Shown here piece after piece: positions 4,326 to 26,577 of a stretch of DNA of 64,000 nucleotides. Position 1 is the first letter of the stretch, and the number at the start of each line of letters is the position of its first letter. The translations under genes were made by a program, and so were the position numbers. The stretch spans positions 930,001 through 994,000 of the forward strand of contig OZ287086.1 in assembly GCA_965645245.1 (NCBI GenBank), in the 5' to 3' direction. The notes beneath the pieces are model-generated. The model was given only the letters and a program-made list of their open reading frames with translations. It was not told the origin of the DNA and did no database searches. This DNA comes from Massalongia carnosa. Its lineage: Eukaryota.

Positions 4326-4762
4326 ACTTGATCGAATGATTTATTGATGATCATAAAACGAATTACGTCATTACTAAAGTATTTATTTTATCATTACATA
4401 TTTCTGAAAAATGTGGCGTTCATAGTTAAAGTTAAGTAATTCTACTCGATTTATCCAAATTAAAGCGAAGACGTTTTTCTATGCCCGGTTTACGACGTAA
4501 TAACGTCTTTTGATTTGACACATTTTCGAGCGGTTGGTTGATTTACACCCGTTTGCAAAATGGTATGCCGAACTTTGAACCCCGAAACTGCGCGGTAAAA
4601 AAAAATATTAAGCGACAGAATTGGACCACACATCAGAATTTGGTGCAGTAGCTAATGGCCCTCCTCCCTTTCACACAACCTTTTGTAGTCTGTAGGATAA
4701 ATGATATGTAGTGTTTTCATGTAGATCTTTATTCTTGCTACCTCGTAGTTTCAAAAGCAAAC

Positions 4763-6111: not shown

Positions 6112-6126
6112 AAATCAATTTCCTCG

Positions 6127-6854
6127 TCAGCTACTGTCTTCCGTATCATCCTCCTCGTCCTCCTCATCCTCCTCATCCTCCTCGTCCTCCTCGTCCTCCT
6201 GATTGTCCTCCTCATCTTCCTCCCCCTCGTCCTCGTCAAGGTCCTCCTCCTTCTCCTCTCCCTCCTCCTCGTCATTCAAAGCCTTTTGTGTAGTCCTAGT
6301 AGCTAGCGGACGTACATTGAAGCTTGGCCGGAAATTCTTTGGCAAAAATGGACTGGAGGAATGTGATTCTGATGGAGGAGGAGGAACAATTATAGGTTCA
6401 GAATCGTGCTCGGATGATTGCTTTTTCAATTGTCTAGCAAATTTGCTGACATCGCGAGCCAAACGTATGCCGATGCCAGGTTCGATTCCCATTTTCTCCC
6501 ATTTTTCCTCATAAACAGTACCTTTCCACTGCTGAATGGTTTGTAAAACAAAACAGGCTCGGGCTCTGGCTCAGGCTCAGGTTCAGGAGCACTAGATAGC
6601 TCAGAAAGACAAGGAGAAGGCGTACTACTGCGAGTAGGACGAACATTCCTTGGCTCGGGGAGGAGGAGACGATGAGGAGGTAAAGGCGAAGCCGAAGGAG
6701 AAGCTGGAGGAGATGGTAAAGGTGGACGTGATGGAAGATCAGGAATACGGGCATTTAAAACTGGTGATGATGATCTAGGAGGATTGATTCTAAGCCTTTG
6801 TTTAAATGAAGGTGCTGAGTTCCTAGGTAATTCAGTAGTAGATGCCCGTTTCAT
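6127..6854 (-). pseudogene. Frameshifted second ORF inside the Tc1-like element (Pro/Ser-rich, short globular core, Asp/Glu tail)
   Basis: ORFs 6854-6426 and 6492-6127 overlap in different frames. Core EKWEKMGIEPGIGIRLARDVSKF is followed by a poly-D/E tract. Confidence 0.55.
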
Positions 6855-7344
6855 GATTGTTTGGAGGGCTGTTTGGGGGGCTGTTTTGAAGGCTGTTTAG
6901 GAGGCTGTTTTCGAGGCATGATGACTGGAATAACTACGTTGAAAGTTCATACAAACGACAATCAAAAGGATATCATTAACCATATTATCCTATAGACTGC
7001 AAAGGGCAGTGTAAAGGGGAGGAGGGCTATTAGCTACTGCACCAAATTCTGGTGTGTAGTCCAATTCTGTCGCTTATTATTATTTTTTTTACCGCGCAGT
7101 TTCGGGGTTCAAAGTTCGGCACACCATTTTGCAAACGGGTGTACTCGATTTCGGAAAAATTCATCGTTAAAATTCGAGCGTCTTGAATAAGCATTTTGTC
7201 TTTCTCGTTGTTTGCAATTTTCAAGTAGTAGTTAAAACTAGACACTTTGAAGAGTTTAAATAATCTAAAGTTTATGTTCTTGTACTTAGACGTCTAGTAA
7301 ACCTCGTTAGTGTTGTCGATAATAAGATATCTATGACTTTTCAC

Positions 7345-8006
7345 TCAACCGCATTTCACTGGATCTAAACTCGGGTCCTGTCGTACCTCTGCGGCGCCTT
7401 CCTCGCTTAGAAGACTGATCTCGTTGTCTTCCTCGTCTTCCTCGGATGAATGCACTACCAGCGTTCCGGTAAGTGGGGCGTCTCTACCGGCAGAGCAGTT
7501 TTCAATGTTTGCTTGCTGGATTTCTGCTCTATTCAAATAACCAACCAGCTGTGCAAACGGGAGCTCGACGAAAGCGTCCGTGACAGCGGAATCGCCAAAA
7601 AACGACCGATAAACGAAGTCTCGTAAGTTAAGAACAAGCGTCCCATCCCCCACGCTGCCGTCCCGAAGACGAAATGGCTGAGGGCATTGTAATCAGCCTG
7701 TCTGACCAAACTCTCCATATCGGGATTAAAGTCAGCTTACTGCATGAAAAGTCCGGTGAACCTTGTGCTTCAGTTCCCCACCCTCGTTGTGATTTAGTAA
7801 CTGCCAGGTGGATACGGAAGCAAGTATCGATGATGACCGATACCCGATATCAAAGCCTACAACCTGCCGGATGTTTCCGTCAGATCCGAACAGATAGTCT
7901 TCTGCGATTGCAGGAAGATCTTTCGACTTCTGGGAGTAGGCCACTTCGATCACGAGGCCTGGGTAAAAAGCCTCCTCATGTTGAAAGGTTTTGTCTGGTA
8001 GACGTG
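7345..8006 (-). pseudogene. 3' half of a restriction-endonuclease-like (Uma2/PD-(D/E)XK-type) gene, truncated by the Copia
   Basis: Motifs RLPDKTF...YPGLVIEVAYSQ...DL...DY..SDGNIRQVVGFDIGY. A GT-AG intron at 7740-7678 joins two ORFs in frame. The 5' side is replaced by the Copia LTR at 8007. Confidence 0.7.
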
Positions 8007-8538
8007 TGTTGCTAATTGACGAGGTTGTTGACATGACCTCATGCAACGTGCTTTTCGCCTCATCCGCCTCATCCGCCACGGCATTAAGTCTATGCCTAAT
8101 TGGGTAATCTTATCCTGAACTGTGCCGTTGCCCCTTGATTATCACAGTTGATTAGTATCAACGCCACATTCAATATCAAGCGCTTAGCTATGAAAGCTTA
8201 AGCAAGTATCATCGAGATACTTCTATGTGGCAATATGAGTCAGAGATTAAGCTGGACATTACCAATCACGGGTAATACGATGAGCTCGGAGGAGTCATTG
8301 CAAATAGGAGGAATTGAGGTAGTCTCAACTTCTATATAATAGCTGTATCTTCTCTCTGTAAATTAGCTAGTCAGTCATTACATAGTTTATCACTTCAAGC
8401 CTATTTCCAGTCTGTCTCTCACCTTGTTACTGCGTGGAGAGTCTTAGTGAAAGCTAGTTGATCATTCCAGAACCCAATCTAACCAACAGGTTATGAGCCC
8501 GGGACTTGCGTAACTGCTACCTGGTTTTTGCTAGCATC

Positions 8539-9549
8539 ATGGCTGATACTCAAGGAATAAACGACTCCGCTGCAGGAGAGCCAGCGACACCCCAAAGCAT
8601 CATCGAAAGGCCTGTTGATGGACAACTCGGGGGAGCTCCCAAACCACCAGATGGGATGTATAGGAAGGCCATTTTGAAAGGTGAGATAAAGATCACCAAG
8701 CTAAATTCGGATAACTATCAGAGCTGGGCGGACGGCATGGAGTTGCTACTGGGAGCAAAAATGCTGTGGCAAATTGTTAGCGGAGATATAACATGCCCCC
8801 ATTTAGCCACGCGACCTACCGATTACATGAACTGGAAGTTCTATGACGCTCAGGCAAAGGCCTGGATATACGTCAACCTCGACGACCCCCAGCACAACCA
8901 CGTTAAAGGACTGGCCACTTCGCACTCAATGTGGGAGGCCATGCGTAAGGTGCATGGTGCTCAAGGCTAGGGACGCCTTAATTTCCTATTGAGGAAGTTT
9001 TTCAACTATAAGGCGGGTGCTTCAGAGACCATTGACGAAGTTTCTAGCGAGCTTACCAGTTTACAATCAATGATTCGGGATATTAAGGCCACGGAGGCCC
9101 CGACAGACCTGAATCTTGCACTTGTACTAATCAACTCAGTCGACAACGAAGCCTATACCATGGCTAAATACCATCTGGAAGATATGCGTGAACTCTCCCT
9201 TGCGGACACTAAAGAATGACTCAAACTCGTTGAACAGTAGATCAAGGACGAAAACTCACAGGGAGGGGAGACCGCCAACAATGCCTCTGGGCGAGGCAGC
9301 AAAAGAAAATGCTATCACTGCGACAAACCTGGGCACATCAAGATAAAATGCTATAAATGGCTAGCCACGGATGAGGGTAAGGAGTACGCGAAGACTCACC
9401 CAAACGATGAGGCCAAGAAGGCTGATCTGGATCCTTCGGCTACACCTCAGCGAGGCCGCAGTAAGAAACCGGCCAGCAAGAAAAAAAGGACTAGCAATGC
9501 CCGTACTACCCAGGAAGATCGCGAGTCGGATGAATCGGAAGATGCATGG
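8539..9549 (+). pseudogene. gag: Copia gag (three in-frame stops, one frameshift)
   Basis: KLNSDNYQSW motif and CYHCDKPGHIKIKC zinc knuckle. Stops at about 8968, 9217 and 9238. Frameshift in the A-run near 9480. Confidence 0.85.
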
Positions 9550-12500
9550 ATGGTAAAGGAAGATGACCAAGATGACCAAGCCTGTATAGCTAGAAAAGGT
9601 CAAGATGAGTCACTTAACGCCTGGATAATAGACTCCGGGGCCAGCCGGCATATGACCCCCAATGGGAATATCTTCACCAGCAAACGGAGCATCAAGGCTG
9701 CCGTCACGGTTGCTAATGGAGAAAAATTACACGCAAAAGGCGTGGGAAACGTGAGTTTTGATATAGAAGGTCAGAACATTAGGATGACGGATGTTTTGCA
9801 TGTGCCTGAGTTGGATGTAAACTTACTGTCAATTTCAGCCCTGAATCGAAAAGGCCTCAGCGTCCTATTTAGGAAGGACGGAGTTGATATTCGGCAGGGA
9901 GATAACTTGGTTGCCAGCGGGATAATGCGAGGCAAGATTTATTTTCTGCGTTCGTCCCAGACGGCATTGCTCAGCAAAGACGCTGGAGTATTAGAAGATA
10001 TTTCGGATTTTTCAGAAATCGAAAACTTAGGTAATGCGGAGACGACAACTCCGAATACCATTGCTAGAAAGGATATTAACGAGATACCTGAGGGAAGCAA
10101 TGAGAAGCAGATCGCTAGGAAATTGGGCCTATACAAGCTTTGGCACGCTCGTATGGGGCACGTCAACCCGAAAAGACTTGGATCACTTTCCCAACATGTT
10201 ACAGGGATTGACCAGATTATTCATCCAAACCTCAAGAGCCTAAATTGCTCTGTTTGCAATTTTTCTAACATGACTAGGGTGGTCAATCGTGATACCCCAA
10301 GGCGTGTAGATCGTCGGCTAGGGAGGGTTCACACGGATGTTTGGGGACCATATCGGGAGGTCAGTATCGGGGGACACCGCTATTTCGTGTCCCTGATAGA
10401 CGACTTAACTAGGAGATCTTGGCTATTATGTATGAGGTCTCGAAGGGAGATCTATGAGAAGATCGGCGAATGGCAGACAGCAATAGGCCTCCAAATGGGG
10501 GAAAAGGTCGCCATCTATCGTTGTGATAATGCTAAAGAATATCAGAAGTTCGAAAGAATAATCCATGCTGACGGAGTTCGGATGGAGTATACAACGGCCT
10601 ACACACCTGAAGAGAATGGAGTGGCCGAGCGGTTTAATCGAAAAATTATTCAAATGACCAGGGCCATGTTGATATGGTCTGGATTGCCTCAAGGATTTTG
10701 GGGTGAGGCGGCTTGCACAGCAAATTACTTACGAAACCTTCTACCGGCGGGTCGGGATGACCTATCACCAATTGAGTTGTGGCATGGCCACAAACCTAAT
10801 ATCAGTCACATTCGAACGTTCGGATGCGTGGTGCACGTCCACATACCTAGTGAAAATAGGGCGAAGTTGGACAGAGTTTCGTTTCAGGGTATATTTGTTG
10901 GCTATCATTCAAGTCAACAGATGCGAATTTATAACCCGAAAACCAAGCGAGTGCAGTGGCACACATCGGTGAAATTTCTAGAAAATGTGCCGGGGGGGAA
11001 ATTGTTGCAAAATTTGGAGTCAACACCTATGGATAAGCTCCTAAGCTATGACGACGGCGACAACAAAATGATTGATCGCGGGGATCAAGACCCCGAACCA
11101 AGCTTCAATAGATCTATATCTAGCGACGGAGCAACTCAGGTCGAGAGAGATATCGACCAAAACCAACCTAGACCCGGAGATATTGCAAAACATAGAGATG
11201 ATGCATCCCCGGGACATGTTAATCAACCAGTGGGAGATGTGGATGATTCTACCTCAACTCCCAACCCTGGTAACAACTCAATCGGAGCAGACGTGCTTCT
11301 ACCTACACCAAATTCCGGTGCCTCCACGAGCACGAACACTTCTAATCCTTCAATGAGCAATCAGTCGATTCCGAAATCAAAAGGGAGGGAAGCGGCAAAT
11401 GAGCCAACTCGCCGTAGTACTCGATCAACTAGGAGCTACGACCGATATCGTTTCGATAACGAATCAGGTCGCAAAACCAATGATAGGCTACCAGACAGAA
11501 GACCGGAGCCATCAACCTACAACGAGGCCATTACATGCGAAGATCATCGACTATGGAAAATTGCCATTGGAAAACAGCTCAATTCGTTGATTGCAAACGG
11601 GACGTGGAAATTAGTCAACAGACCTTCCAGCGATGTGAATGTGATAATCTCCAAATGGGTATTCAAGGTTAAATACACATCCTCCGGCTTAGTCGATCGC
11701 TATAAGGCCTGTCTAGTAGCCAGAGGTTTCACCCAGGTGCATGGCATAGACTACGAAGAAACCTTCGCTCCGACTTTGAGGCTAGATTCACTGCGAATGC
11801 TATTAGCATTTGCTGCATATTTTGGTTTCGAAATCGAACAGATGAATGTGCCTGATGCATACCTAAAGGGAGAGCTTAACGAGGTCATTTATATGGAAGT
11901 TCCGCAGGGCTACGAGCTTCCCACACGACAACAGGATCATATTTTGCACTTGTTGAGGCCCTTATATGGGTTAAAACAGTCAGGTCGGGAGTGGAACGTA
12001 AAAGCTAAAAAACATCTGAAGTCAATTGGTTTCAACCCTATTAGCTCGGATAATTGCGTTTTCGTCAACACCTCTACCCGTGTAATCATTGCATTATACG
12101 TGGATGACATTCTCATCTTCGCAAAATCACTGACCACTATCAACGCCGTAAAGGCTGAACTGCATAAGGAGTATAAAATGAAGGATATTGGTAAGGCAGC
12201 ATTTATATTGGGCATCCGCATCAGACGTGATGTGAAAGGAAAAGTACTGGCCCTTGACCAGTCAACTTACATTAGGAAGTTGCTCCGCGATTTTAACATG
12301 GAGAACTCCCATTCAGTCTCTACCCCCATCGACGGTTATCATGCCCTCACACCCTCAGGACCTTCGGATGAACGAACAAATCAAACCGAATATCAAAAGA
12401 GAATCGGTAGCCTCATGTATGCTATGGTTGGTACGAGGCCAGATATTGCCTTTGCAGTTTGCAAACTTAGCCAATTTTGTCAAGACCCATGTGTCAGGCA

Positions 12501-13065
12501 CCGCACTGCACTGGACCGAGTCCTACGCTATTTGAAAGGGACCATAGACCTAGCTTTGGTGTATGATCATAGCCGGGCTGAGCATCCTATTGGCTACGCT
12601 GATGCAGCGTACGGAGATGATTTGGAAGATAGGAAATCAACTTATGGGCACACCCTACTAATCGGAAATGCGTCAGTAACGTGGGCTAGCAAGAAGCAAA
12701 GAACTATAGCTACCTCCACCACTGAGGCCGAGTACGTGGCTATGTGCCAGGCAAGCAAAAACGTTGTATGGGCTACCCGCTGGATAAATGAGTTGGAATT
12801 CGGCCACATACGCAATTTACCTATCAAACTACTCGGAGACAATCAAGGGACACTGAACCTGATAAAAAATCCTGAACATCACAGTAGGACCAAACACATC
12901 GACGTTCAGTATCACTATATTCGAGAAGCTGTCGCCGATAATTATGTGAAAACCGCATATGTTCGCACCCAGGAGATGGTCGCTGATTTTCTTACCAAGC
13001 CAACCAAATCCGACGTCTTCACCACTTTGCGGGCCATGTTCGGTTTGAAGGAGGTGGATTTCTGA
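9550..13065 (+). CDS. pol: Copia pol (protease-integrase-RT-RNase H), open but the first catalytic Asp of RT appears changed to Asn
   Basis: WIIDSGAS, WHARMGH, HTDVWGP, RCDNAKEY, NGVAER, QMNV (usually MDV), LYGLKQSG, YVDD, YADA, EAEY, KHIDV. Confidence 0.92.
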   Translation: MVKEDDQDDQACIARKGQDESLNAWIIDSGASRHMTPNGNIFTSKRSIKAAVTVANGEKLHAKGVGNVSFDIEGQNIRMTDVLHVPELDVNLLSISALNRKGLSVLFRKDGVDIRQGDNLVASGIMRGKIYFLRSSQTALLSKDAGVLEDISDFSEIENLGNAETTTPNTIARKDINEIPEGSNEKQIARKLGLYKLWHARMGHVNPKRLGSLSQHVTGIDQIIHPNLKSLNCSVCNFSNMTRVVNRDTPRRVDRRLGRVHTDVWGPYREVSIGGHRYFVSLIDDLTRRSWLLCMRSRREIYEKIGEWQTAIGLQMGEKVAIYRCDNAKEYQKFERIIHADGVRMEYTTAYTPEENGVAERFNRKIIQMTRAMLIWSGLPQGFWGEAACTANYLRNLLPAGRDDLSPIELWHGHKPNISHIRTFGCVVHVHIPSENRAKLDRVSFQGIFVGYHSSQQMRIYNPKTKRVQWHTSVKFLENVPGGKLLQNLESTPMDKLLSYDDGDNKMIDRGDQDPEPSFNRSISSDGATQVERDIDQNQPRPGDIAKHRDDASPGHVNQPVGDVDDSTSTPNPGNNSIGADVLLPTPNSGASTSTNTSNPSMSNQSIPKSKGREAANEPTRRSTRSTRSYDRYRFDNESGRKTNDRLPDRRPEPSTYNEAITCEDHRLWKIAIGKQLNSLIANGTWKLVNRPSSDVNVIISKWVFKVKYTSSGLVDRYKACLVARGFTQVHGIDYEETFAPTLRLDSLRMLLAFAAYFGFEIEQMNVPDAYLKGELNEVIYMEVPQGYELPTRQQDHILHLLRPLYGLKQSGREWNVKAKKHLKSIGFNPISSDNCVFVNTSTRVIIALYVDDILIFAKSLTTINAVKAELHKEYKMKDIGKAAFILGIRIRRDVKGKVLALDQSTYIRKLLRDFNMENSHSVSTPIDGYHALTPSGPSDERTNQTEYQKRIGSLMYAMVGTRPDIAFAVCKLSQFCQDPCVRHRTALDRVLRYLKGTIDLALVYDHSRAEHPIGYADAAYGDDLEDRKSTYGHTLLIGNASVTWASKKQRTIATSTTEAEYVAMCQASKNVVWATRWINELEFGHIRNLPIKLLGDNQGTLNLIKNPEHHSRTKHIDVQYHYIREAVADNYVKTAYVRTQEMVADFLTKPTKSDVFTTLRAMFGLKEVDF

Positions 13066-13489: not shown

Positions 13490-16400
13490 TCACGCTATTC
13501 CTAGCTGCGCATCCGATACGAAATGCGACCCTCCAGCGCACCTATACCCTTCCGCCTGCTTGATCCAGCGAAACCCAGCACAACAAACCCCCATCTCCCT
13601 CAATTTCTTTTGAGCCTCGCGCTCTTTCCGCCGCTGCTCCTCCTCCGCCTGCCGTCTACGCTGCAAGGCCTCTAGATCCGCCTCGCGGGCCCGTCGTTCC
13701 AGCTCGTGCTGTAGACGTGCTTCCTCGTGGCGGCGTTTTGCTTCGTCGCCTACAGCGTGTCGAGCCGCTTCTTCAAGAGCGGCGGTGATTTTGGCCTCAG
13801 TCTTTCGCACCGCTGCTGCCGCTGCTTCTTGCTCAAGCAATTGCTTGTATTCCTGCTCGCTGGCTTGGGCCGCAGCTTTGTCCTGCTGTAAGCGCTCCCA
13901 CACCTCGTCGCTCACTCCGGCATCCCGCGGCGGATCGATGGATGTTGCTTGTGCGTCATGGTTCGGTGGGGGGGGCCGACGATCCTTGTGAGATGACACA
14001 CTCTGCGTGGATCGCGCTATTGGTGTTACGGGAGGGCTGTTCAATCGCTCAGGGAGCGGTCGATGAGGGGGCGAAGGTGGCGGGCCATGATCTAAAATAG
14101 GTATATGGCATCTGTGCGCTCGTTCGGCAACCATAGCGTCGAGTCCTACCACGATGATTTCTTCATCAATCGTCAACTTTCCAGGCGATGTCGTAGCGGC
14201 CCGTATGGTCTTGCCGAAGACACCCTTTGCAAGAGTCTGGATATCGCGGGCATTTGCCCAGTTGGGTAAGTTTGAGAGCACCTGGAATCGATCCAACAGC
14301 TTCTCGAGAAATTCTTTCCGCGGAGATTCTAGGATCGTCATGTCTAGATCTCGATTTTTCTGAAGAAGCTTTTGCTTTTGTCCCCGAAGCTGTTCGGTAA
14401 AGAGCTTCGTACATTCGCTTGGGTCCAGGCTCCTAAATATAAGCGTTTCTGGAAAGCGACTCGTTAAGCCTGGGTTGATGGACATCAGCCGGTTGATGTC
14501 GGCGTCATATCCTGCAAGAATTAAGATAAGCTTTTGCGCAAATTTTGGTTTCGTAATACTGTCGACAATTTCGTCCATAGCTTCTTTGGCAAAGTGGCCC
14601 TCTGCAAGCCGGTATGCTTCATCAATGAACAGGATTTTCCCAACCGCCTTCTCTAACAGCTTCTGCGTTTTCGGCCCCGTTTGCCCTACATATTGGCCAA
14701 CGAGTTCAGTGGCAGAGCTTTCAACCACTTCTGCTGTAGCCAAAAAGCCCATGTCATAGTAAACCTTTCCCATTTTTCTCGCTGTCGTAGTTTTCCCCGT
14801 GCCTCAACCGGTTTGTTAGTTTGTCACCAATATGATATAATGCATTTGGCTTACCTGGGGGCCCACGGAAAAGAAAATTAAAAGGAATCTGTTCGCGAGG
14901 ATCCATGTCTACACTCTTCATGTTCCTTGCAATCTCTTGGTATCCCTTCAGCTGAGCAACTATATCATCGCAGCCCACGACCCCTTCAAATAGCACACGA
15001 ATGTTCGTCTCTGCACGCTCTCCTCGATCAAAATCCTCATCAAAATCCTGCGCTTCGAGCGTAGCCGTGTTTTTAGGTTTCCTTCCTTTCGAGAAACGCC
15101 CTTGGTGACGGGCTTTGGCGCCATTCAGCAGGATATCCACCTCGCCGGCGTTTCCGAAATGTGGGCGATTGCGGGCTCGGCATAGAACCTCCAGCGCGAC
15201 CTTCTTGCCTTGGTCCGTCGCGCCGAAACCTTGCTGCTTCAACTTGAGGTCAAGGATCCCGCGCAGCTCGTCGTCCGTGAAATCCTCAAACACGAAAGCC
15301 GAGTCCAAAGGAAATCTCCGGCTGAGCCCGGGATTCACCTTCTGAAACATATCTTCCATTTGATCCTTGTAGCCAAGTAGAAGTACGCATCGATCTTCCC
15401 CCGGCGTGCTCTGCACTTCGGCAACAATGGTATCGATGACGGCGGTCTTGTACGGATCGGCCTGTGACCCGCCCTCATCCCCCTTCCCTCCTCCATATAG
15501 GCCGTACGCCTCGTCTATTACAAGAACCTTTCCAATAGTGGAAGCTAATATGCCTTTCGTATTCTTTTCCGATTCTCCAAGCACACTGCCTACGAAATCG
15601 GCCGGATTTTTTTCAACCACTAGTCTCGTTAGCATTCGCTGTGCACGAAGTTATGTCAGAAAACCCAACCTTCGCCGTTAGAGAGCATCCCAATATGAGC
15701 AAGTGCCTGTCCATATAACTTCGCGACTGAGGTTTTCCCAGTGCCTGGGGAGCCAAGAAAGACACGGTTCAGGGAATACTTCACAAGAGGCTCCTCCTCC
15801 AACTCCCGTGAGTAGTTATACTGAACGCTATCGAAAAGTGCAAGCACGGATTGCTTAACAGCTTTGAGACCAATAAGGTTTTGAAGGTCAGTCCAAGCGT
15901 GACAATTTTTCAGCGCCAGCGCCGGCTCCGGGCCAATCATGTCTTCCTTTGCGAGCAGCATATCATCGGTTGCGATTCCGGTCCTCCTCTCCAGTCGAAT
16001 ACGATTGGCTTGCCGCTCAGCAATATGAGCGCATGCGTTTTCCACAGCGCGAGCATTTCCAAACCCTTCATGACCGCGTCCGCGACCGATGCGACGCGCG
16101 ACAATGCGGGCGTAGAGGCCAGCCGTACCGCCCTCCACGTTCATTCTTCCGTTATACTTTTTGTCAATCTTGCGTGCCAAGATCTGTAGAAGCTCGGCAT
16201 CGCCATAGTCTTTGCACTGCAGCTCATGAGGGAATCGGCTATGTATGCCAGGGTTGTGCGAGAAGAATGCCTCCATCTGCTTGTTGTAACCTGCAAGGAT
16301 GAATACGACCTTTCCGGTCAAGTTCTCGACTTCAGCAAGAAGAAAATCAAGGACCTGTTTTCCGGCGTAATTCTGATCTGAAGCGAGCTGGTAGGCCTCA

Positions 16401-19400
16401 TCGATGAAAAGTACACCTCCGCCATTGTTAAGAATATCTTCTATCTGCTTTTTGCACCCTGCGACTCCGCCATTTGTGAGTCGTGATCCGGTAGTCTCCA
16501 CGAAAAAGCTACCAGGGAGGGCACCCACTGAGGTCAAGAACTTAGCGTAGAGCCGAGCAACTGTCGTCTTACCTATAACTTCGTAAGCCCAATCACGCCA
16601 AAGAATCACATCAAAAAATCAACGCGCACCTGTGCCTGGATTACCCAGCAAAGCAGCGCCAAACCGCTCCTCTTTCATGTCAACATTCTGGCGAACAGCG
16701 GTGTCGACCCTTGATTTGATGGACAGGAATTTCTCTTTGACGTTTTCGAGGCCAATCATATCCATCAGAGAATCAAGTGCTTCGTTTTGTGCACCTTCGA
16801 GCTCTTTTTGGTTTGCCCATTCGCCCCCAGCACTGGAACTCGAAGTGTCCAGGCTATCTTTCTCTTGGTCCTTGGTCGCCGATTGCTCCGTATCAGGAGC
16901 GGAACTCGGGGTGACGTCAGGAGGAGCGGTGGTAGCGCTGGCTTGACTCATTGTAGTTGTCGGCGAAGGGTCTTTTTTGCTTATATGCTTCTTCCTTCCC
17001 ATACCGTCTCTCAAACCATCCAGATCTTGCTGGTGCTGATGAAGAACCTTCTCTCTCTCGTCCTGATCTAATTGGTTTCTCAATATGCGTCTCTCATGCG
17101 CAATTTCATCTTGGAGTTCAATCAGTTGTCGCGCGTACTCCTTCTGCTTGGTTTCGCGCTCAACCTCGAGTTTATAGTCTCTTTGGCGCTTCAATTCCTG
17201 CCTGCGATCCTCGGCTTCACATACTCTGCAAGTAGAGGCTTTTTTGAAACACGGTCGGGTTAATATGTGATTTCGAGAACAGAGTGACTCTACAATCTTC
17301 TGACATTCCATCTTGGAGTGATCAAACAGCTGATGACACCGCTGAGGGCAATCGTGAATGCCGCATCTTAGTTTCGTTCCACTGCTCGATTCATTAGCAA
17401 AACGTACAATATTCGTCCATCCAAACCTACCAAGGTTCAGCGCATCCGCCATCAGGGCATTCCGTCTCAAAATCCTCTTTCTTTTGCAGAAGAATCTTCA
17501 TCTGCGGATGTCGTTCGCATTTGACAGGTAGTCCATCGTACAAGTGATGATCTTCGCTGAGCTGATTGAGAAAAGGTACCCAAGCTTCTTTGCCTCTCCG
17601 GCTTTTCATGAAAGTGTCTGCATTTCCAATGATGATAAGTGCGATGCGGGCTCTGGACAATAAGACATTGAGTCTCTGTGGCGCAGCCATGAACCCAATT
17701 TCGGCAGTCTTGTTGCTGCGGGTGAGAGACGCGATTACGATATCGCTCTCTTCGCCTTGATAGTTGTCTGTAATCGTCAGCATCCTTGAGACGATTGGGG
17801 GTGGTATCGAAGGATAATTTAGCCACTACCAAAGAGAGGTGAATTTACCGATAGTAGATATTCGAATAGGACGCTTGGTAAGCTGTGCACTTGCCCGTGA
17901 GAGCAAACCAGCTCGAACCAGATCGAACGAGTCGAGGTCGTTCAGGATCGGGTCATTCTCCTTGCCAAGCTGATTCCGAAGAAGATGTAGCTGCCCAAGA
18001 TACGGTGTGAGGATCACCAACTTGTCCGTCCCATACCCTTGTTGCGCCAAGTATCGCACAATTTTCAGCACCATCTCGACCTCGAAAACATTCCGCTTGC
18101 TGGCTTTGGCGCCTTCGTCTCGACGATCAGCGATTTGTGTAAAATCAACCTCCGGATGATTGTGATTGAAGAATATAACCCGATCCTGTAGGCCGCGAGG
18201 TGGGGGACGATTCAAAGTTTTCTCGTCGTCTAGTAGGTCAGGATAAGTGAGATGCCTCACAAGAGATGAAATCTCCGGGCACATGCGATGTTGGTTGGTG
18301 AGTGTGGTATGTGGATATCCTGCAAGAACGAGCCGCTCAAAAAGAGATCGGTTCAAGTCATACCCGTCTCCTTTTTCGATCGTGAGAGCGTAATTGTTGA
18401 CTTTGGGACGCAATTGCTTGTGGTCGCCGATAAGTACTAGCTGCTTGGTTTCGGAAGATATGGCTGTGAGAACGTGGGATTCCAAGATTTCGCCAGCCTC
18501 TTCGACCAAGATCACGCCTGGGGAAGCGCTCTGAAGGTCTCGCGAATACTTCGCAGCTGCAGTCGTCGTGCAGCCAATGACGCGCTTCTGTTTGAGAATG
18601 GACGTGGTCTGCTCGCTCAGCGCCTCGTCCAAGCGATTCTGACAGTGATCAAAGCGTTGTGTCGATTTACAGGTTTTCATTACTTGCTCCTGAAGTAAGG
18701 CATGAACCCACTTGTCCATACAGGCCTGCCGTGCAGCAAGATCCATGCTCCAGACCTTTCGGTGTTCTTGCGAAACTTCCTTAGCGAAAACTCCCGCATC
18801 AGTGCCCTTGAACCAACGATCAAAGAGATAGCCAGGTCCCACGCTTTTGCCTCGTTTACCCACCATGATCATGCCGTCTTCTTGCTCTGGAATACTCAGT
18901 GCCTCGTAGAAATAAGCATCTTCCTCGGAAAATTCCAAATATTCAAGTATGTCTCTCCATTGGACAGAGAAGTCATTGTATGATTGAAAATCGAAGGTCA
19001 AACAGCTTTGAAGCTCCTCTGCGTCCTTTTTTAGCATATTGACCAAATCCCACACAGGTTGAGACCGCCGGTAGGAGGATTTCTGCTCGGAAAGGTTGAG
19101 ACAGGCTGTTCTTGAGGTGGACTTTGCTCCAAGACGCACAATGTTCTCTGGTGGAATCCCAATGTCAAGAAAATCCTCGAGAAATTGATCGAGGGCGTGG
19201 TTCGTGTAGCAGATGACCAAGATAGTTTGACGGGTATGGTCATGGAATGCTTTGGCAAGCAACGCGCCAATAAAAGACTTGCCGGTGCCTGAACAAATTA
19301 GTCTTGGAAGCGCTAGTGTAGAGTACTTAGATCACACCTGGAGGCCCTTGAATCAAACTCAGTGTTTGGGTTAACCCTGCAATTAGTGACTTCATCTGCG

Positions 19401-20814
19401 ACGGGTCGAGCGTAATGGCCTTCGCTGTTCGTAAAATATGCTGGACATCATTGCTAATTCTTCCTTTTAGCTGTTCCATAAGCAACTGAGGAATCAAGGG
19501 GGGTTGGGATGCCCCATCTTTAGGATTATGGCCTAGCAACTCCTCTGCCAGGGGCAAGTCTACTTTCTCTTGAAGACACTTCAGCACCGGCTCATACGCA
19601 AAGATAGCCGTATCAACAAGCAAAAACTCGAGATTCCCTGACAGCTTTAAGGCAAAAAGGGCTTTCTTGAACGCTTCATCCTCCGAGATTCGCAGCATAA
19701 CAACGGGGGGTTGCCTCATCAAGGCATCTTCATTCCTATCCACGGTGGCAAAAGCCACAATCTCTCCGCCGCGGATCATACATCCAAAGGACTGATGCTT
19801 TAGAAAGCTACGATTCTCGCGAAGGAACACTTTACGCTCAGAAGGCTCCAGGAGGGTCAGCTGCTCAAGCCCAGAACCGCACTGGACGGCCAAAGCGCAA
19901 GGCTTCCATCTTTTCTCGTCGCCGCAGGAAATCCCTACCGCTAACAGGTTCCGCAGGACCAGAGCCGATCGTCTTCCTTTCTTCTGCCCTCTCGCAACCT
20001 GAAGGCCATCGCGGAGCTCTGCAAGCATGTCCTCGCGTAGAAGGCGAAATTGATTGTCTAGATGCATGGCAACCCGATACTCTGGTTGCGCTTCGGTGAT
20101 GGCGTCCGCTGGTCGATAGAAAGGTTTTTCGGTGGAGAGGAACTCATCCGCAGTCGGATAAATGGCAATTTTGCGGAAATCCGTGCAGTCGTTGTCATGA
20201 CGGCCTCCAGGAGCACATTCCAGGTCCACAGACGCGGCGGAAGCCCTGGTAGAAAGGACGTGTTGGATCTTGTAACCGAGCGTACGGATCTCGTGGGTCA
20301 AGGACTCGAGGAGAAAACCCTCGGTGGCTATACCTTGTGCATCCTGCAGAACGTCGACCTCACTGGAGGGCGGCAACGATATGAGTTCCAAGAGCAGCCA
20401 GGCAAAGGCATGTACCGAGTCCTGGGCCAGCAAACGCTCCTTGTACAATGCAATCAGGGCGTTCCACAAAGTCGGTGGCTCGACGATGATGAGGAGGAAC
20501 TGTCGGAGAAACTGACCATTGCACACCTGTTTTACGGCCGGTTCGGATAGGTATTTGATGAATGGTGCAGTATACTGATTGATAAAAGACGCTGAAAGAT
20601 CAAACCGCAAACCAGATTGGAGAGCTCTCAAGGCTTGTGAACTGGCGACCAACTTCTCCACGCAGCTCTGGTGGTCTTTCTGGTCGCAAACGGCCTCGAG
20701 GAATAACTTCGTGTCTGCTGCATTTTTAATAACTCTTTTCCCGTGCAGAACATGTCCAAAATGTAAGGTCAATTTCCTGGATCGCGAGGAGTCTGAGGGA
20801 GTAGAGGAAGACAT
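13490..20814 (-). CDS. ZNFX1-like SF1 (Upf1-like) RNA helicase fused to NFX-like Cys/His region, three CbbX/SpoVK-type AAA+ domains and a C-terminal Cys/His motif (7 exons, about 2,300 aa)
   Basis: Helicase motifs RHDND..DFRKI.IYPT.DE, LDNQFRLLRED, QGPPGTGKS, CYTNHALD, EEAGE, LIGDHKQLRP, SLFERL, QHRM, TPYLGQ, DNYQGEE, RLNVLLSRA. Cys/His region CGIHDCPQRCH. Three GxPGTGKT / IDEAY / SRF / (F/W)xNA sets. Six introns (19337-19289, 17848-17768, and near 17430, 16630, 15670, 14855) join the ORFs, and I found no internal stops. Confidence 0.9.
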
Positions 20815-21209
20815 GATGGCGGTATGTATTGCTCAATGAAACCTCGACCAATCACTCCTTCACACTATGGCGCCTAAAGCGTCAGGTGAGGTGAAAGGCA
20901 GGAGTATCTTGCACTTTAGAACAAAAAGCACTTCAGTATGGTTTCCTTTTCCTTCATAGAAGCCGAGACTACTGTTTTTGACTGCAAAACATCAGCAAAC
21001 ACGCTTCTTGCAGCAAAACAATCAGTTTCGCTCGGTAACGAATCATTTACTTCTATATTCTACCTACCCCGCCTTCAGCCTAGCTGAGCGGCATGTATCC
21101 TTCCGATGTGCTGCACATTTTGTAGTAGCACTCTCCGTACGCTCTGCGACCTCTCGTAGTCGCATCTCACCTAACGACATAGCATCCAGCAGACATTTAT
21201 TTACCTGCC
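20815..21209. promoter_or_regulatory. Probable bidirectional promoter
   Basis: 395 bp between two divergent start codons. No specific cis-element verified. Confidence 0.5.
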
Positions 21210-22753
21210 ATGTCTACTAACCGCGGCAGATGGCCCGTAGGGAGCGCTGGTCGAGGGCACGGCTCGTCTTTGCTATTCCGTGGTCGAGGGCGGGGTTTCA
21301 ATCAACATTCAAGCCAACCGCCAAGGCAGACGGCAGCCCGGCCTCCGTCCCCTCCCCTGGGTCCGGTGCTCAAAACGCTCGGCGAGGACGAGCTTGCCGA
21401 GTCTCCCAGTCTCGGTGCATCGACTCCGGGAATCATCGACTGCGAAGATATCGTATCCTACAACTGGCTGCATGGGTCCGAGCCTACTATCGTAATTCCC
21501 GGTCTGCATGCTCTCCCTTCCCTATCTTGTAACACTCTGAATGATGATGTGTAAAGATAAGGAACGAGAAGCTGATTCTTACAAAAGGAAAGCCGGCGGC
21601 TTGGACACCCCCGATCACACTCACCAAGCTCAAGGAGGACAATGGAGACTACTTTCGCGATCGAAACGCCGCGCGATACCCAGCTCATCCGATGGAGCCA
21701 GCGGTCCAAGCTATCTTCGCCTCCCACCCTGACTTTCCTACGGCCTCCGTGGAGGTTTTTGCATGCAGCAGCACACTTGGGAATCTGCTCCGGTTCGTGC
21801 GCAAAGTGGACAAGCCCTTTCGAATGCTCGTCGAGGTTATTGGAGACACGGTCTTCTTTGTGCGCCGGGAGAACTCACCAACAGAGCTGATCCCTAACGT
21901 TAGAGGATTCGGTCATACGTTTCCGGAGATGTACACCACATGGGAGGCTGACGTAAAAAAGTCCGAGTCTCACCAGCGTGTCGTACGCTACGGGTTTGGG
22001 GGCTTAAATTGCCTCGTACGGTTTGAGGCCGACGGGTATCACAAAGATTTGGTCTCGAAAGGGGCTGAGCCTAGAGGAGCGCCCGAGCCTACTGAAACCG
22101 GTAATCTCGACGATATACTCGCGGCAGCTCTCGGCAACAGCACCATCGCTGCACATCCTTCCGAACATGACAAGCCCTTAGCCGTCATCCGCGGCGGACA
22201 ACGGATTTCGCGATCCGCCATTTTCGACCTGAAAACTCGCTCTTTCCGGAAAAAAGATCAGGACACCCTTGGCGAGGAGCTGCCCCGTTTATGGACGGCT
22301 CAGATAAACAATTTTATCCTCGCATACCATGTGGCAGGCATTTTCAACGACATTCAAATACGGAACGTCCGCCATGAGATTGACGACTGGGAGCGCGATA
22401 ATGCGGATACGCTCCGTCGATTTGCAGGTCTCTTACGGAAAATTGTGGCGTTTGCTCGGAGCAGGACAGACAGGAAGTTCGAGGTGCGGCGTCGAGCGGT
22501 CGACGTTTTGGAGCTGAGAGAGCAGGAGGGAGGGGCGAGTTCCACTCTTTCAGCTGCCGTCGAGGCGCGTTGGGTTGCGGGAAAGTCGGATGGATCCGAG
22601 CGTCCTAGGGATGAACCCCAAGGACCGGATCCGCGCAACATATCCACGATCGATGATGAAAACGACTCTTTTGACTGGGACGAGGGATCCGACAAGGATT
22701 TCACCGCATGTACAGCGGAGGACTGTGGATACTGCGGTCAATGCACCTATTAG
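21210..22753 (+). CDS. DXO/Rai1-like PD-(D/E)XK nuclease-fold protein (2 exons, about 485 aa)
   Basis: Intron 21502-21587 joins SYNWL..PTIVIPG to KPAAWTPP in frame. Ordered motifs GHTFPE, RFEADGY, FDLKT and RLWTAQ resemble DXO motifs II-V. RG-rich N-terminus and C-terminal CTAEDCGYCGQC. Confidence 0.75.
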
Positions 22754-24380
22754 TGTCAGCTCCAATCACTAGCTTCTTATGTTTTGCCAGACATTCGCTT
22801 GAACTTTCATCTATCTGATGTTGTAGAGGTCGGAGCGTGCGAATGTAAAAGGGAAAGACAATGCACGAGCGTTCGGCTCTGACGTCATGATTCCACTTCG
22901 GGATGAGACGTGTCCAACACAACATGACGCTTGAAAGTCGAAATGAAGTTGGAAGCAAACTGATGAAATAGGCGTTCGTAATCAGGCCGTAGCCGCATCG
23001 TTGAGAACGAGTCAACGAACCGCTTCATGAAAAGGTGATTCCTTCAAGGATATCAACCCGATAAAATCTGTACTGTGACATTCGACGAACGCTCTTTGCA
23101 ATCCACTGACGTAAAGCATATGCGAGTCACACGTCTGAAATGACAAGCGCAGACGTGGATCAACTACTTCCTGATCGACGTCGAGTTCAACGGGTAGTCA
23201 CTTGTTGACGAATCCGAAAAGGCCAAGACCAGTGGCAATCCAGCAGGCTTGTCGAGGAAGACACGTCACGGGCGCGAGCGGTCGCACGTACTTTGGTAAT
23301 ATTCAGCGTTGTGAACTAACTACCACAGTAGCAAAAAGGTCAGGGTGCATAAGACATGTCTGGCCGACGTCACAAGCATGGTGTCGATATAATCCTGACC
23401 CGGAACTGATCGGCCATCCACATGGGACTAATGTACTCATCAATCGCTTCGGGCGATGGCTTACTAGTCGTCTTCCCTCATTAGCCGCGCGTTTCTACTT
23501 CCTGCTGTGTTTCTTCTTCATCTCCATCGTGGGATGCTTGGCGAGTACTACGATATTCATATGCCGGATGAGGAAGATCAATTCCCTGCTCGAGCGCCTC
23601 AAAAACGACACTCGTCATCCCATCAAGTGGGCCGACGAGGTGCCGCCCGAATCGCTCGTGCGGTTTCTTCATTTGGGCCTACAACGACTGAGGAAGGGAT
23701 ACGAAAAGTGGCAGGAGCTACGTATTGAGGATGATATATATTTCTTCGGTATGGGGAAGACGCGCGAGGGGAGTTTAATCCGTTGACAAAAAAGATTCAG
23801 GCAAGCCGGATCCTACATACAACCGAGCACAAATGGGAAATGGAAAGGATGATGGTCGATAGACGTAGCAAACAGTGGGCGATTTTTGTTCATGGGTTTG
23901 CGATGCGAATGCAATGCAATCTACGTTGACTATCCTGTTCATCATACACGTTCCTTTCCGCTCCAATCGGCTCACAAATCTCAACCGATTTGTCACATCA
24001 TCGACGTATTCTCGTTTCGTTTTTTTCCCCCACCACTTTCAGTGCGTTGAGGTAGGATGGTCTACGCGTTGCAGGTTTCCATGAACATGTTAAACGAGGA
24101 CGTTGTTTTATCTCTACTGTCCCTACATCCATTCGGATAGGCCCGAAATGAGTCAATGGGACTGTGAAAGGAAGACAAGTTCCCCGGAAGGGATAACGAG
24201 ACATGTGGAGGGAGGGAGTGTGGGTTATCAGCTATGTATGTGTGGCACGGTTTCCGCATGACTGTATTGAGTTGGCCCGGGTACTACCAAGTACCTCTCC
24301 TGCACTTATCTGTAGGATATTCGAGGGATCGCAAGCTATATCGTGATTATCACGCGTGCGTATGAATAGGTGGTAGAGAG

Positions 24381-24500
24381 TGTTAAAATATACAGTTGAC
24401 GGCATAATGTTGAAATTACTACGGAGGTGACTGCTTATATTAGTCATGGCAGCCTGCAGGGCTGAGCTAGAGCTAATGGGGCTAAGCGAGTATTCCAACA
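24381..24500. repeat. Very short solo LTR (120 bp), family B
   Basis: tgtt...aaca ends and TSD gagag. A reverse-orientation homolog lies at about 43943-44237. Confidence 0.85.
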
Positions 24501-24788
24501 GAGAGCGGGTTCTTGGTGCGCCTAAGAAGACTAACCTCGAGAAAATAGCCAATCTTAGAGAGAAAGGCTAGTTACGTGCAATGTCGTTGGAGAATTTGTA
24601 AGTTTGATGGGATGGGATGCAGCCGTAATGATACATAAAGAGGAAGGTCGGAATAATGCTTTGCAAGCGCGCCGCACCAAACAATTTCGACATTTTGTCT
24701 TGCTCCCCACTACTTCCCCTCTGGGAAGGTTCAATCGCTCACATTCACCGCCACTGCATGTTAAATAATAAACCAACTTCATAACCTG

Positions 24789-26577
24789 ATGAACACAATG
24801 GCCATTTTCTCTCCCATCCATTCAGCATCAACTCCAATCCTTTCTTCCGACCTCATCCTTGCATGGCTAGACAGCGTTGAGTCGGTCCACGACCCTAACG
24901 CTCTGCCACCTTCACCATTCCCCAGGTCGCGCAAGCGCAAGGCATCACCGTCAGTCAAGCCACTGCAGCCAATACTCAACCTATGCACCCGTACGATGCC
25001 CTCTCCACTGAAGGATAAGACGCAGCAATCCGGTCAACCTACAACCAAGCCACCTACCTATCACAACATGCCGGATGAGAACGAAACATCGCCCAGGCGG
25101 TCCATGAGAAATCGTTCACCCACCTCCAAAGCAAAAGGGAACCAAGCAGCAATTCCTCCGGTTTCGTCGAGATTACCGAATGCAAACCCAGCTTCTGCTT
25201 CTCATACCCAGAAGGTGCCTACGTTTCACAGCGGCAGCAACACATACGACACTGACCGTACCACCAAATCGCCAGTCAAAGTAGATCGTCCGATCCGGGA
25301 GAAGCCAGACGAAAATCGTGAGCGTGGAAGAGGATCATATATTGAGGATGAGACGGAGAATACCGTTTTGTCGGACCTCGCTACGATATCATTTCATGCA
25401 ACGGAGGAGCGCACCACTGATCGAACACGCTCGAGCAGTCCCAATAAGGAGATTGCAAGAATGGGTTACTACAATCCACCAATTACCATCCTCCATGCGC
25501 AGTCGTCGGATCATCCGGCCTGCGTCACCACTTTTCTGACAAAATTCAAGGCTACGATCAAGGGCAAGGCTGTTATACCAGCATATCTCAAGGTATACCA
25601 ACCCATGAGCCATGAAAGACCTTAGCTGATTCGGTTTCCATTTCAGGACTCTCTTGATGCTGAACGTCTCGGTGTCGCTGAGCCTGATGACTTTAATTAT
25701 GGACAGCAAGTTGCGGCTGATACGGATTCCAGTTTCCTCTGGTCCAGGGTCAAGGAAATAAAAAATGCCGCGGATGAGTGTAGAGAATATGGTGGTTACG
25801 AAGGAAATTGGATTGATTTGGTGGTTAAGCCGCTTGTAGAGCTTACCCTAAGACACGGTAGATTTACGAGGAGAATTCGCGCGTCTAACGTGTAAGCTAA
25901 CACAACCGCCCGTTCTAGCATTAACTGACGGATTACGTAGGGATATGGTTCAAGTTCAGCCTCGGAATCTCCTTCCTCTGGATCCACAACGAAACCAACC
26001 GGTCCCGTCACGCAAAATAGACATTATCCTCGCCCTGGAGCTACCCTCGGACCGAGTGGCGAAGGCGTTTGCTCGCTGGGCTGACGAGGATATCTCCTTT
26101 AATCAAAGCTCTGGGGATTTTCATCGACGAGTGCCCATCTTTACCAACATCGAGGTCAAGCGCACGCATGGGATCGAACCTCTGGTTCAGCTTGGTATCT
26201 GGTCCGCTGCGGGATTCCAAAAGCGAAGCCATGATGGGGATGAGAAAAACGAGGATGAATTGCCGACGCTGCTGGTGCCTGGCTCGACCGTGGTTGGCGA
26301 CCTGTGGACTCTGTATGTGGCATACAAGAAACACAACGGGTCCGTGGTAAGTTGGGCTGCGTTTTCTTCCCATGTTTCAAAGTGTCCGCTGACATGCTTG
26401 ATACGACAGGTCCTCGCTGGCCCGATAACGATTGGTCTTACTAATAGCTACCTCGGCATCTTTCAGATCATTAATTGCATACTAGTGTTATCGGAGTGGG
26501 GCCTGGGTGAGTACAATACGTGGCTGGAAGATGTTGTCTGGAAACGCTTGGAGCATGCACCAACAGGTATACCATAG
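24789..26577 (+). CDS. Fungal PD-(D/E)XK nuclease-like protein with disordered N-terminus (4 exons)
   Basis: Introns 25593-25646, 25892-25940 and 26347-26409 give one frame. Motifs EGNWIDLVVKPL, RKIDIILAL, SFNQS, NIEVKR, VQLGIW, VVGDLW, IGLTNSYLGIFQI. Confidence 0.82.

Follow-up and report, generated by a model that had tools for sequence, protein, structure and literature searches.

In animals, ZNFX1-type helicases and DXO/Rai1 enzymes each hold a central place in RNA surveillance, in the inheritance of small RNAs and in antiviral sensing, and the fungal proteins Hrr1 (S. pombe) and SAD-3 (Neurospora) are ZNFX1-type helicases of RNA interference (RNAi) that are not known to be fused to AAA+ units. 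ZNFX1 binds RNA through its superfamily 1 (SF1) helicase domain and acts in antiviral responses (10.1101/2025.09.05.674436), and DXO/Rai1 enzymes possess pyrophosphohydrolase activity (PMC4513879). Within the DXO family, Dxo1 is a duplicate that took up 25S rRNA processing (PMC11571810), C. elegans EOL-1 is an extra copy in an RNAi/antiviral-like pathway (PMC7735679, PMC13129544), and Drosophila Cutoff is an extra paralog in the PIWI-interacting RNA (piRNA) pathway (PMC11571810); neither EOL-1 nor Cutoff is known to be genetically linked to a ZNFX1-type helicase. No described system is known to couple a ZNFX1-type helicase genetically with a DXO/Rai1 enzyme, or to give such a helicase an AAA+ motor of its own. 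Here we analyze a stretch of 64,000 nucleotides of Massalongia carnosa (contig OZ287086.1, assembly GCA_965645245.1, positions 930,001 to 994,000; hereafter the window, whose own numbering is used throughout) in which two neighboring genes encode such a combination: gene 1, a ZNFX1-type helicase continued by three CbbX-type AAA+ units, and gene 2, a protein with a predicted DXO/Rai1 fold. On balance, and with somewhat more confidence than doubt, we regard this pair as a conserved two-protein RNA-surveillance unit of filamentous fungi, kept together by selection and probably co-regulated from a shared promoter.

The pair spans positions 13490..22753 and consists of two intact, divergently oriented genes. 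Gene 1, on the minus strand, starts with an ATG at 20814 and ends with a stop codon at 13490-13492; its seven exons splice into a frame of 6987 nt that contains a single stop, at its terminus, and encodes 2328 amino acids (aa). All six introns have GT-AG borders and are 49-81 nt long (19337-19289, 17848-17768, 17430-17382, 16629-16573, 15669-15620 and 14854-14803), and every exon junction matches the consensus of 32 orthologs without indels (for example, QGPPG/TGKSF, RISTI/DNYQGEESD, CAEP/CGTKLRCG, GNPGT/GKTTVARLY and RGPPG/TGKTT, with a slash at the junction). Gene 2, on the plus strand, runs from an ATG at 21210 to a stop codon at 22751-22753 in two exons that encode 485 aa, and its 86-nt intron (21502-21587) joins PTIVIPG/KPAAWTPP, a sequence that is continuous in the family consensus; the model of this gene in the protein collection is 100% identical and shorter (353 aa), with a conserved N-terminal part missing. 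Between the two start codons lie 395 bp (20815..21209), which presumably form a shared bidirectional promoter. The coordinates and the spacing reproduce those of the initial annotation, which had described two apparently intact multi-exon genes, divergent and 395 bp apart. The stretch is present in five sequencing runs labelled as lichen or lichen-fungus, none of them recorded as RNA, and the contigs of four of these confirm its sequence.

The arrangement recurs widely among fungi. Scanning with the gene 2 profile yielded 80 metagenome loci (designated by L numbers below), in which we sought gene 1 homologs by tblastn with the spliced gene 1 protein. Of the 48 loci having at least 2 kb of sequence upstream of the gene 2 homolog, 43 carry a gene 1 homolog there on the opposite strand, as do 33 of 37 distinct loci after merging those at least 97% identical. 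The matches reach approximately aa 2325 of gene 1 wherever the locus DNA suffices, so that the fusion of the helicase to three AAA+ units is itself conserved, and the outermost matches leave a spacer of 383-1270 bp. Named records tell the same story: when the 41 named records among the best 120 gene 2 homologs were compared with the best 120 of 4067 gene 1 homologs, at least 11 of the 41 lay on a contig of the same length as that of a listed gene 1 homolog, and in six of them (Psora testacea, Trichoglossum hirsutum, Trypethelium eluteriae, T. subeluteriae, Teloschistes hypoglaucus and Aspergillus melleus) the two genes carry consecutive locus tags. The other 30 are uninformative, since the gene 1 side of the comparison covers the best 120 helicase matches. 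Leaving Aspergillus melleus aside, the fungi with consecutive tags span Lecanoromycetes, Geoglossomycetes and Dothideomycetes; A. melleus belongs to a fourth class, Eurotiomycetes. No third gene is conserved beside the pair: the best other cluster of flanking open reading frames (ORFs) recurs in 4 of the 32 distinct loci whose sequence continues downstream of gene 2 for at least 3 kb, and only 2 distinct loci offer at least 3 kb beyond the gene 1 3' end, so this control covers mainly the gene 2 side. Without selection on the pair, adjacency that persists across four classes while the other neighbors change would be difficult to account for. The divergent linkage noted at the outset is conserved in both the metagenome loci and the named fungi with consecutive tags.

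The spacers of eight loci (L015, L020, L022, L024, L026, L044, L072 and L075) share a non-coding element of approximately 100 nt (core CGCCAC.TG.GCTCAGCCTTG...CAGGCAGCAT) with a conserved octamer, located approximately 320-355 bp from the gene 1 start region. This element is a candidate shared promoter element; neither it nor the octamer was found in the 395-bp spacer of the present window.

Gene 1 opens with a pre-helicase region of 492 aa, encoded by exon 1 (19338..20814, minus strand; aa 1-492) and composed of an N-terminal helical-repeat region and a beta domain that precedes the helicase. This region has no Pfam family, and its ortholog alignment contains the invariant motifs GGRHDND and NQFRLLRE. 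In a phmmer search against the PDB its residues 175-424 align to residues 384-621 of ZNFX1 (E 1.3e-10), and a Foldseek search with its AlphaFold model (predicted local distance difference test score, pLDDT, 83.7) places the ZNFX1 helicase core at the top (9q9z, E 6.5e-8, 23% identity), followed by Aquarius and SETX. The main part of the Upf1-like SF1 helicase core is encoded by exon 2 (17849..19288, minus strand; aa 493-972), which matches the Pfam families AAA_11 (1.2e-18) and AAA_12 (1.1e-20); its Walker A motif, GPPG/TGKS at aa 490, is interrupted by intron 1. Against all PDB sequences, the helicase exon finds ZNFX1 (9q9z_A, 5.5e-50) well ahead of Aquarius (2.8e-15) and Upf1 (1.6e-11). Exon 3 (17431..17767, minus strand; aa 973-1084) contributes motifs V and VI (TIDNYQGEESD and RLNVLLSRAR), the C-terminal part of AAA_12 (5.7e-15) and the start of a Cys/His region, and motifs II-VI are intact in the spliced protein. 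With ZNFX1 as the best solved match to the helicase exon and the pre-helicase region also ZNFX1-related, the original assignment of gene 1 as a ZNFX1-type SF1 helicase stands.

Behind the helicase, exon 4 (16630..17381, minus strand; aa 1085-1335) encodes more of the Cys/His region, then a stretch that is charged or coiled-coil, a linker of low complexity and finally the first part of AAA+ unit 1. The Cys/His-rich region extends over approximately aa 1055-1140, with its density peak at aa 1051-1150, and its Cys and His columns show conservation of at least 90% across 33 sequences; it matches no zinc-finger Pfam family even at E <=5 and no PDB sequence. It may resemble the NFX1 finger pattern. 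The three AAA+ units follow in tandem. Unit 1, whose Walker A motif (GNPGT/GKT) is interrupted by intron 4, occupies exon 5 together with its lid (15670..16572, minus strand; aa 1336-1636; Pfam AAA 9.1e-14, AAA_lid_6 1.2e-6) and has the Walker B motif VLFIDEA at 1389; the same exon ends with the Walker A motif of unit 2 at 1609. Exon 6 (14855..15619, minus strand; aa 1637-1891; AAA_lid_6 6e-9) encodes unit 2, with VLVIDEA at 1668, its lid, and the first half of the unit 3 Walker A motif, and exon 7 (13490..14802, minus strand; aa 1892-2328 and the stop; AAA 6.1e-11) encodes unit 3, with ILFIDEA at 1948, then a Pro-rich linker, a charged coiled-coil-like stretch and a C-terminal Cys motif. The Walker A (GxxGTGKT at 1331, 1609 and 1889) and Walker B motifs (hhhhDEA at 1389, 1668 and 1948) are at least 90% conserved in the 33 sequences, and unit 1, used alone as a query against the PDB, finds CbbX (3zuh_A, 7.5e-27) and EccA1 (4.8e-19). 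Three CbbX/SpoVK-type units with intact Walker A and Walker B motifs are therefore present as first described, and of the SRF motif once ascribed to each of them, units 1 (NPGIHSRFP) and 3 (NPGLTSRFP) keep the expected sequence whereas unit 2 reads SRRF (NPGLSRRFP). The C-terminal Cys motif, GVCxxGxRWIKQxGGYRCAGGSHFV (13493-13580), is kept in orthologs; a phmmer search of the PDB with the last 50 aa returned only a chance-level match to SNAP-25 (E 0.97) and detected no RZ finger.

The part of gene 1 that encodes AAA+ units 2-3 (14459-16103) has a second copy in the contigs of two runs, at similar depth, approximately 10% diverged and carrying several 1-nt indels. This copy probably either represents a partial duplicate that has decayed at another place in the genome or stems from a second strain.

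Set beside the systems outlined above, gene 1 is closest to ZNFX1, whose human structure (9q9z) is the best solved relative of both the helicase exon and the pre-helicase region. It differs in possessing the three CbbX-type AAA+ units that ZNFX1 lacks, in a Cys/His region that is short and yields no NFX1-type finger family, and in its C-terminus, where the RZ finger with a catalytic Cys reported for ZNFX1 (10.1101/2025.09.05.674436) was not detected. The best solved relatives of AAA+ unit 1, the red-type Rubisco activase CbbX and EccA1, have the AAA plus AAA_lid_6 architecture in common with it, whereas gene 1 carries three such units in tandem in a single chain together with a helicase. In RNF213, an AAA ATPase core is joined to the E3 module that ZNFX1 also has (10.1101/2025.09.05.674436), so a ZNFX1-like helicase with AAA+ units combines themes of both; the units of gene 1 are CbbX-type, and the likeness to RNF213 is one of theme. 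Among bacterial defense systems, Mokosh also combines a Upf1-like helicase with a nuclease, and its MkoA model in PADLOC is matched by exon 2 of gene 1 (8.5e-34), a match that follows from the shared SF1 helicase superfamily. We rejected Mokosh as an identification of the pair: gene 2 and the other exons of gene 1 match no PADLOC model, and the partner has a DXO fold. The Mokosh nuclease, by comparison, is of the phospholipase D (PLD) fold, and Mokosh is not known to include AAA+ units.

Exon 1 of gene 2 (21210..21501, plus strand; aa 1-98) encodes an arginine- and glycine-rich (RG-rich), low-complexity N-terminus, the motif PPSPPLG and a conserved SYNWL...PTIVIPG stretch; an RG-rich N-terminus occurs in 20 of the 44 gene 2 homologs that have an N-terminal extension. 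Exon 2 (21588..22753, plus strand; aa 98-485 and the stop) encodes the DXO/Rai1-fold domain, an acidic disordered tail and a conserved C-terminal four-Cys motif, C-x4-C-x2-C-x2-C (C-x4-C-G-Y-C-G-x-C-x-Y; 22694-22750). The fold is apparent from the predicted structure. A lead came from a language-model search, in which a cluster with 49% RAI1 members stood at rank 11 (score 0.88). Foldseek, given an alignment-based AlphaFold model (pLDDT 77.2, predicted template modelling score, pTM, 0.73), returned 52 PDB matches at E <=0.001 (best 4.1e-9), and the matches listed are exclusively DXO, Rai1, Dxo1 or eIF3d cap-binding chains. The VIA search, which is independent of Foldseek and covers 48,161 chains, agrees: A. 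gossypii Rai1 (Z 20.9, 273 aligned residues, root-mean-square deviation 3.5) and Arabidopsis DXO1 (Z 20.9) lead the matches, followed by mouse Dom3Z (19.1), K. lactis Dxo1 (15.8) and eIF3d cap-binding domains (12-13), and the next fold, that of RecE and other PD-(D/E)XK nucleases, scores Z 5.2. The DXO-like partner proposed in the initial annotation is thus recovered at the level of fold and not by Pfam, phmmer or profile searches of sequence. In all, the homologs proved to be linked and the model of the partner to have a DXO fold, two of the points on which that annotation had made its proposal depend.

A set of conserved residues between 21869 and 22303 (plus strand) forms a putative active site (E192, E244-A-D246, D311-L-K313 and R331...Q336). 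In DXO/Rai1 enzymes, motif I is an Arg, motif II is G-Phi-X-Phi-E, motif III EhD, motif IV EhK, motif V KX4-Phi-hQ and motif VI GhR (PMC4513879). Across 42 gene 2 sequences, E192 (conserved in 41) would correspond to the Glu of motif II, E244-A-D246 (30 and 42) to the EhD of motif III, D311-L-K313 (38 and 42) to motif IV in the form DhK, R331-x4-Q336 (both 42) to motif V in the form RX4Q, and G348-x-F350 (both 42) to motif VI in the form GhF. The spacing is similar as well: K313 is followed by R331, Q336 and F350 at +18, +23 and +37, against +17, +24 and +38 in CaRai1, and E192 by E244 at +52, against +49 (CaRai1 values computed from the numbering in PMC4513879), and the predicted strands and helices of gene 2 coincide with the motif positions given in the same paper. 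From this order, spacing and predicted secondary structure we infer that the gene 2 residues are equivalent to motifs II-V, and the metal site is probably intact.

Judged on its model, gene 2 is a fold-level relative of DXO/Rai1 and forms a separate family; with neither a Pfam RAI1 match nor a sequence-level match to DXO/Rai1, it belongs outside Pfam RAI1. It resembles DXO, Rai1 and Dxo1 in its fold over approximately 260-270 residues and in acidic and Lys residues that follow the order of motifs II-V, and differs from them in sequence (9-14% identity to their structures, no match at the level of hidden Markov models, and DhK, RX4Q and GhF in place of the usual motifs), in pairing with a helicase-AAA+ gene instead of Rat1/Xrn2, and in the additions to the fold, namely the RG-rich N-terminus, a disordered insert and the C-terminal four-Cys motif. 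Unlike Cutoff, in which catalysis has been lost (PMC11571810), gene 2 keeps the acidic and Lys set. The family is large: a length-restricted search found 1182 homologs, and a library clustered at 50% identity contains 2777 representatives at E <=0.001, 851 of them at <=1e-30. It runs counter to the view that eukaryotic genomes typically have one DXO family member (PMC11571810). Named homologs are mostly annotated as 'geranylgeranyl pyrophosphate synthetase', a name for which we saw no support; the re-assignment to the DXO/Rai1 fold corrects a widespread mis-annotation. No protein fusing the helicase to the DXO-like domain was found, and only 4 longer gene 2 proteins turned up. What these carry in addition is P450, fungal rhodopsin or no recognizable domain, so they look like merged gene models.

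Both proteins of the pair end in short conserved Cys motifs behind charged or disordered tails, and neither motif matches a known family.

The history of the pair was examined through gene trees. A FastTree phylogeny of 33 full-length gene 1 proteins conflicts strongly with taxonomy: the two Basidiomycota stand beside Rhinocladiella (listed under Chaetothyriales), Orbiliomycetes are nested in a Dothideomycete clade, and Leotiomycetes lie near Tothia and Venturia, approximately 0.2 substitutions per site from the Dothideomycete Tothia, when Aspergillus and Penicillium are approximately 1.1 apart. For 12 linked pairs, the trees of both genes unite Glonium (Dothideomycetes) with a Teloschistes metagenome-assembled genome (MAG) with 100% support, and these two are 74% identical in gene 1 and 65% in gene 2, against approximately 56% and 47% to the other entries. 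Since the gene 2 tree repeats this grouping, this part of the history is common to both genes. Over 66 comparisons, the pairwise identities of gene 1 and gene 2 correlate with a Pearson coefficient of 0.84 and a Spearman coefficient of 0.38. Parts of the discordance could stem from paralogy with differential loss, from horizontal transfer or from MAG contigs that were mis-binned.

Comparison of closely related loci reveals how much DNA the copies have in common. In four such comparisons the nucleotide homology comprises the pair and ends a few hundred bases outside it, even though the sequence extends further on both sides: L007:1555-11469 and L009:1547-11467 are 95.8% identical with abrupt edges (pair span 1757-11134), L029-34 and L038/39 approximately 90% identical over 1767-11115, L054 and L058 85% identical, and L063 and L067-70 91.6% identical. 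The limits fall approximately 200-350 bp beyond the outer ends of the pair, which thus appears to behave like a discrete block of 9-10 kb. A search of the L007 block edges turned up no convincing terminal repeats, inverted or direct, and no transposase or recombinase lies inside the block.

We also asked which genes adjoin the pair. In 35 loci, 81 of the 117 flanking ORFs that reach 230 aa were scanned (those omitted were mostly overlapping alternative frames or came from loci already scanned), together with 16 ORFs from the four loci at which gene 2 stands without gene 1. An RNA-dependent RNA polymerase (RdRP) and an Argonaute lie downstream of gene 2 in L039 (12286-18216), and the same Argonaute in L038 (11753-13836); L034 has a Piwi fragment of a different Argonaute (14648-14899, E 8.4e-7), and in L025 a Dicer-like ORF with two RNase III domains (1-1686) stands tail-to-tail with gene 1, 470 bp from its 3' end. 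With approximately 8-10 core RNAi genes in a genome of 10,000 genes, our own rough estimate is that approximately 0.1 would be expected by chance among approximately 100 random neighbors. Within the 64-kb window itself, no RNAi gene was found among ORFs of at least 180 aa. Other flanks contain HET domains (L024, L055), an NPHP3_N-ankyrin gene resembling NOD-like receptors (NLRs; L051), CHAT (L047), SIR2 (L049) and many ankyrin proteins; these families are a hint only, because they are abundant in these fungi. The RNAi neighbors are circumstantial support, and they indicate small-RNA pathways more specifically than a sensing of viruses.

Taken as an RNA-surveillance unit, the pair could operate as follows, with catalysis, physical interaction, co-expression and targets all being what we infer from homology, fold and arrangement. 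The helicase would bind target RNA and translocate on it, as its homology to ZNFX1 and Upf1 suggests. The AAA+ units, possibly as a six-unit ring in a dimer, would remodel or strip RNA-protein complexes or gate the helicase. The DXO-like partner, to judge by its fold and its conserved acidic and Lys residues, would hydrolyze non-canonical 5' ends (a triphosphate, or incomplete or non-canonical caps) to a 5' monophosphate, or trim RNA in the 5'-3' direction, which would mark the RNA either for decay or for a small-RNA pathway. Likely targets would be aberrant, transposon-derived or viral RNAs, and a role against mycoviruses or transposon RNA would fit such a scheme. If the pair does act on viral or transposon RNA, it would constitute a new branch of innate immunity in fungi, experimentally tractable and possibly linked to RNAi, and a natural model for the regulation of a ZNFX1-like helicase by an AAA+ motor.

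Several observations weigh against this reading. Gene 2 has no Pfam family at E <=0.01 (RAI1, PF08652, included) and no phmmer match in the PDB at E <=10, and a profile of 42 gene 2 sequences finds no DXO/Rai1 chain in the PDB, only two unrelated matches at chance level. Motif I has two candidate Arg residues (R121 and R166), the G-Phi-X-Phi context is missing from motif II, motif VI reads GhF and so lacks its Arg, and 12 of 42 sequences have G or A in place of E244; moreover, eIF3d and, according to PMC11571810, Cutoff illustrate that a DXO fold can work without catalysis. At 4 of the 37 distinct loci the gene 2 homolog stands without gene 1, so the gene 2 family can exist unlinked. These exceptions are L064, with a reverse-transcriptase ORF upstream; L049, where a gene 2 paralog (9737-11248, 36-38% identity) lies between an SNF2-related ORF and a SIR2-family ORF; and L005 and L017, with unrelated neighbor genes. 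RNAi genes occur in 3 locus groups among the 39 loci scanned and are lacking from 36, and two of the three groups, L034 and L038/39, are copies of the pair that are 90% identical and sit in differing flanks. Finally, full-text searches of the open literature found no enzymatic or genetic data on the pair. Nor did they find a description of the pair, the helicase-AAA+ fusion or the gene 2 family and its fold, in keeping with the statement of the initial annotation that it knew of no functional description. The components belong to known families; what is new is their coupling, the helicase-AAA+ fusion and the re-assignment of a mis-annotated family. In Neurospora, NCU07036 (a '3'-5' exonuclease') and NCU04472 (an 'RNA helicase') are among the genes induced by double-stranded RNA and by virus (PMC7648066).

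The presence of RdRP, Argonaute and Dicer-like genes beside the pair in L039, L038, L034 and L025, against approximately 0.1 expected, lends some appeal to a narrower role as a dedicated RNAi accessory, in which the ZNFX1-type helicase would work with an RdRP, as Hrr1 and SAD-3 do, and the DXO-like enzyme would convert 5'-triphosphate RdRP products or precursors to the 5'-monophosphate form for Argonaute loading. Since most scanned loci and the 64-kb window show no such neighbor, and RNAi helicases are not known to have a counterpart of the three-unit AAA+ motor, we consider this role rather unlikely, even with the type of the helicase and the pyrophosphohydrolase activity of DXO/Rai1 enzymes (PMC4513879) in its favor. 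A broader proposal is that the pair is a self-contained RNA-defense cassette exchanged between fungal lineages, across classes and into Basidiomycota, and plugged into RNAi. Here the helicase, driven or gated by a six-unit AAA+ ring of two chains, would extract foreign or RdRP-made RNA, and the DXO-like enzyme would leave a 5' monophosphate in place of its 5'-triphosphate or non-canonical cap and thereby license the RNA for loading into Argonaute or for decay by Xrn1. We hold this to be unlikely; if true, it would make the pair a eukaryotic counterpart of bacterial helicase-nuclease defense cassettes.

Two other explanations were weighed. A housekeeping function in RNA processing or quality control, for instance in maturing rRNA 5' ends or controlling mRNA capping, with no role in defense, would suit the DXO/Rai1 fold, for which Rai1-Rat1 and the function of Dxo1 in 25S rRNA processing (PMC11571810) are precedents. 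A gene 1 tree strongly discordant with taxonomy, paralogs with other neighbors, related loci that share the pair and not its flanks, and the position of the present pair among transposons are however features of accessory rather than core genes, and a purely housekeeping function seems to us distinctly improbable. Alternatively, the linkage may reflect shared mobility as a cassette of 9-10 kb, or just a bidirectional promoter, with the two proteins acting independently and gene 2 perhaps being a non-catalytic binder of RNA ends or caps like eIF3d or Cutoff. The homology that ends sharply some 200-350 bp beyond the pair, and the Z scores of 12-13 for eIF3d cap-binding domains against the gene 2 model, would both fit such an explanation. 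We think it quite improbable, given that the L007 edges bear no terminal repeats and the block no transposase or recombinase, that the near-invariant acidic and Lys residues argue for catalysis, and that the adjacency persists across four classes as every other neighbor changes.

The genomic surroundings of the pair in the window are rich in transposons, as the initial annotation had noted; its further statement that most of the other coding sequence is decayed transposon does not extend to all elements. A Copia-type ORF (9241-13065, 1274 aa; RVT_2, rve and gag_pre-integrs) is uninterrupted and ends 425 bp from the gene 1 stop codon, and a Gypsy-type element (32218-37244) comprises an uninterrupted pol ORF (32218-36069, 1283 aa) and a gag ORF. 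Neither looks decayed; both are potentially intact. Further elements include Tc1-like DDE_3 ORFs at 39689-40843 and 61546-63045, and reverse-transcriptase and integrase fragments at 88-2420. Approximately 3 kb downstream of gene 2 lies an ORF of the PD-(D/E)XK nuclease family (PDDEXK_12, 25852-26577, 5.4e-24), preceded by two ORFs with no Pfam family (23175-23786 and 24765-25625); none of the three is kept beside the pair at other loci. Between gene 2 and the PDDEXK_12 ORF, a segment of approximately 110 bp (24392-24500) reaches a contig depth of more than 30,000, against approximately 170 around it, and contigs break there, with many loose ends starting from it; this segment is a very high-copy short repeat.

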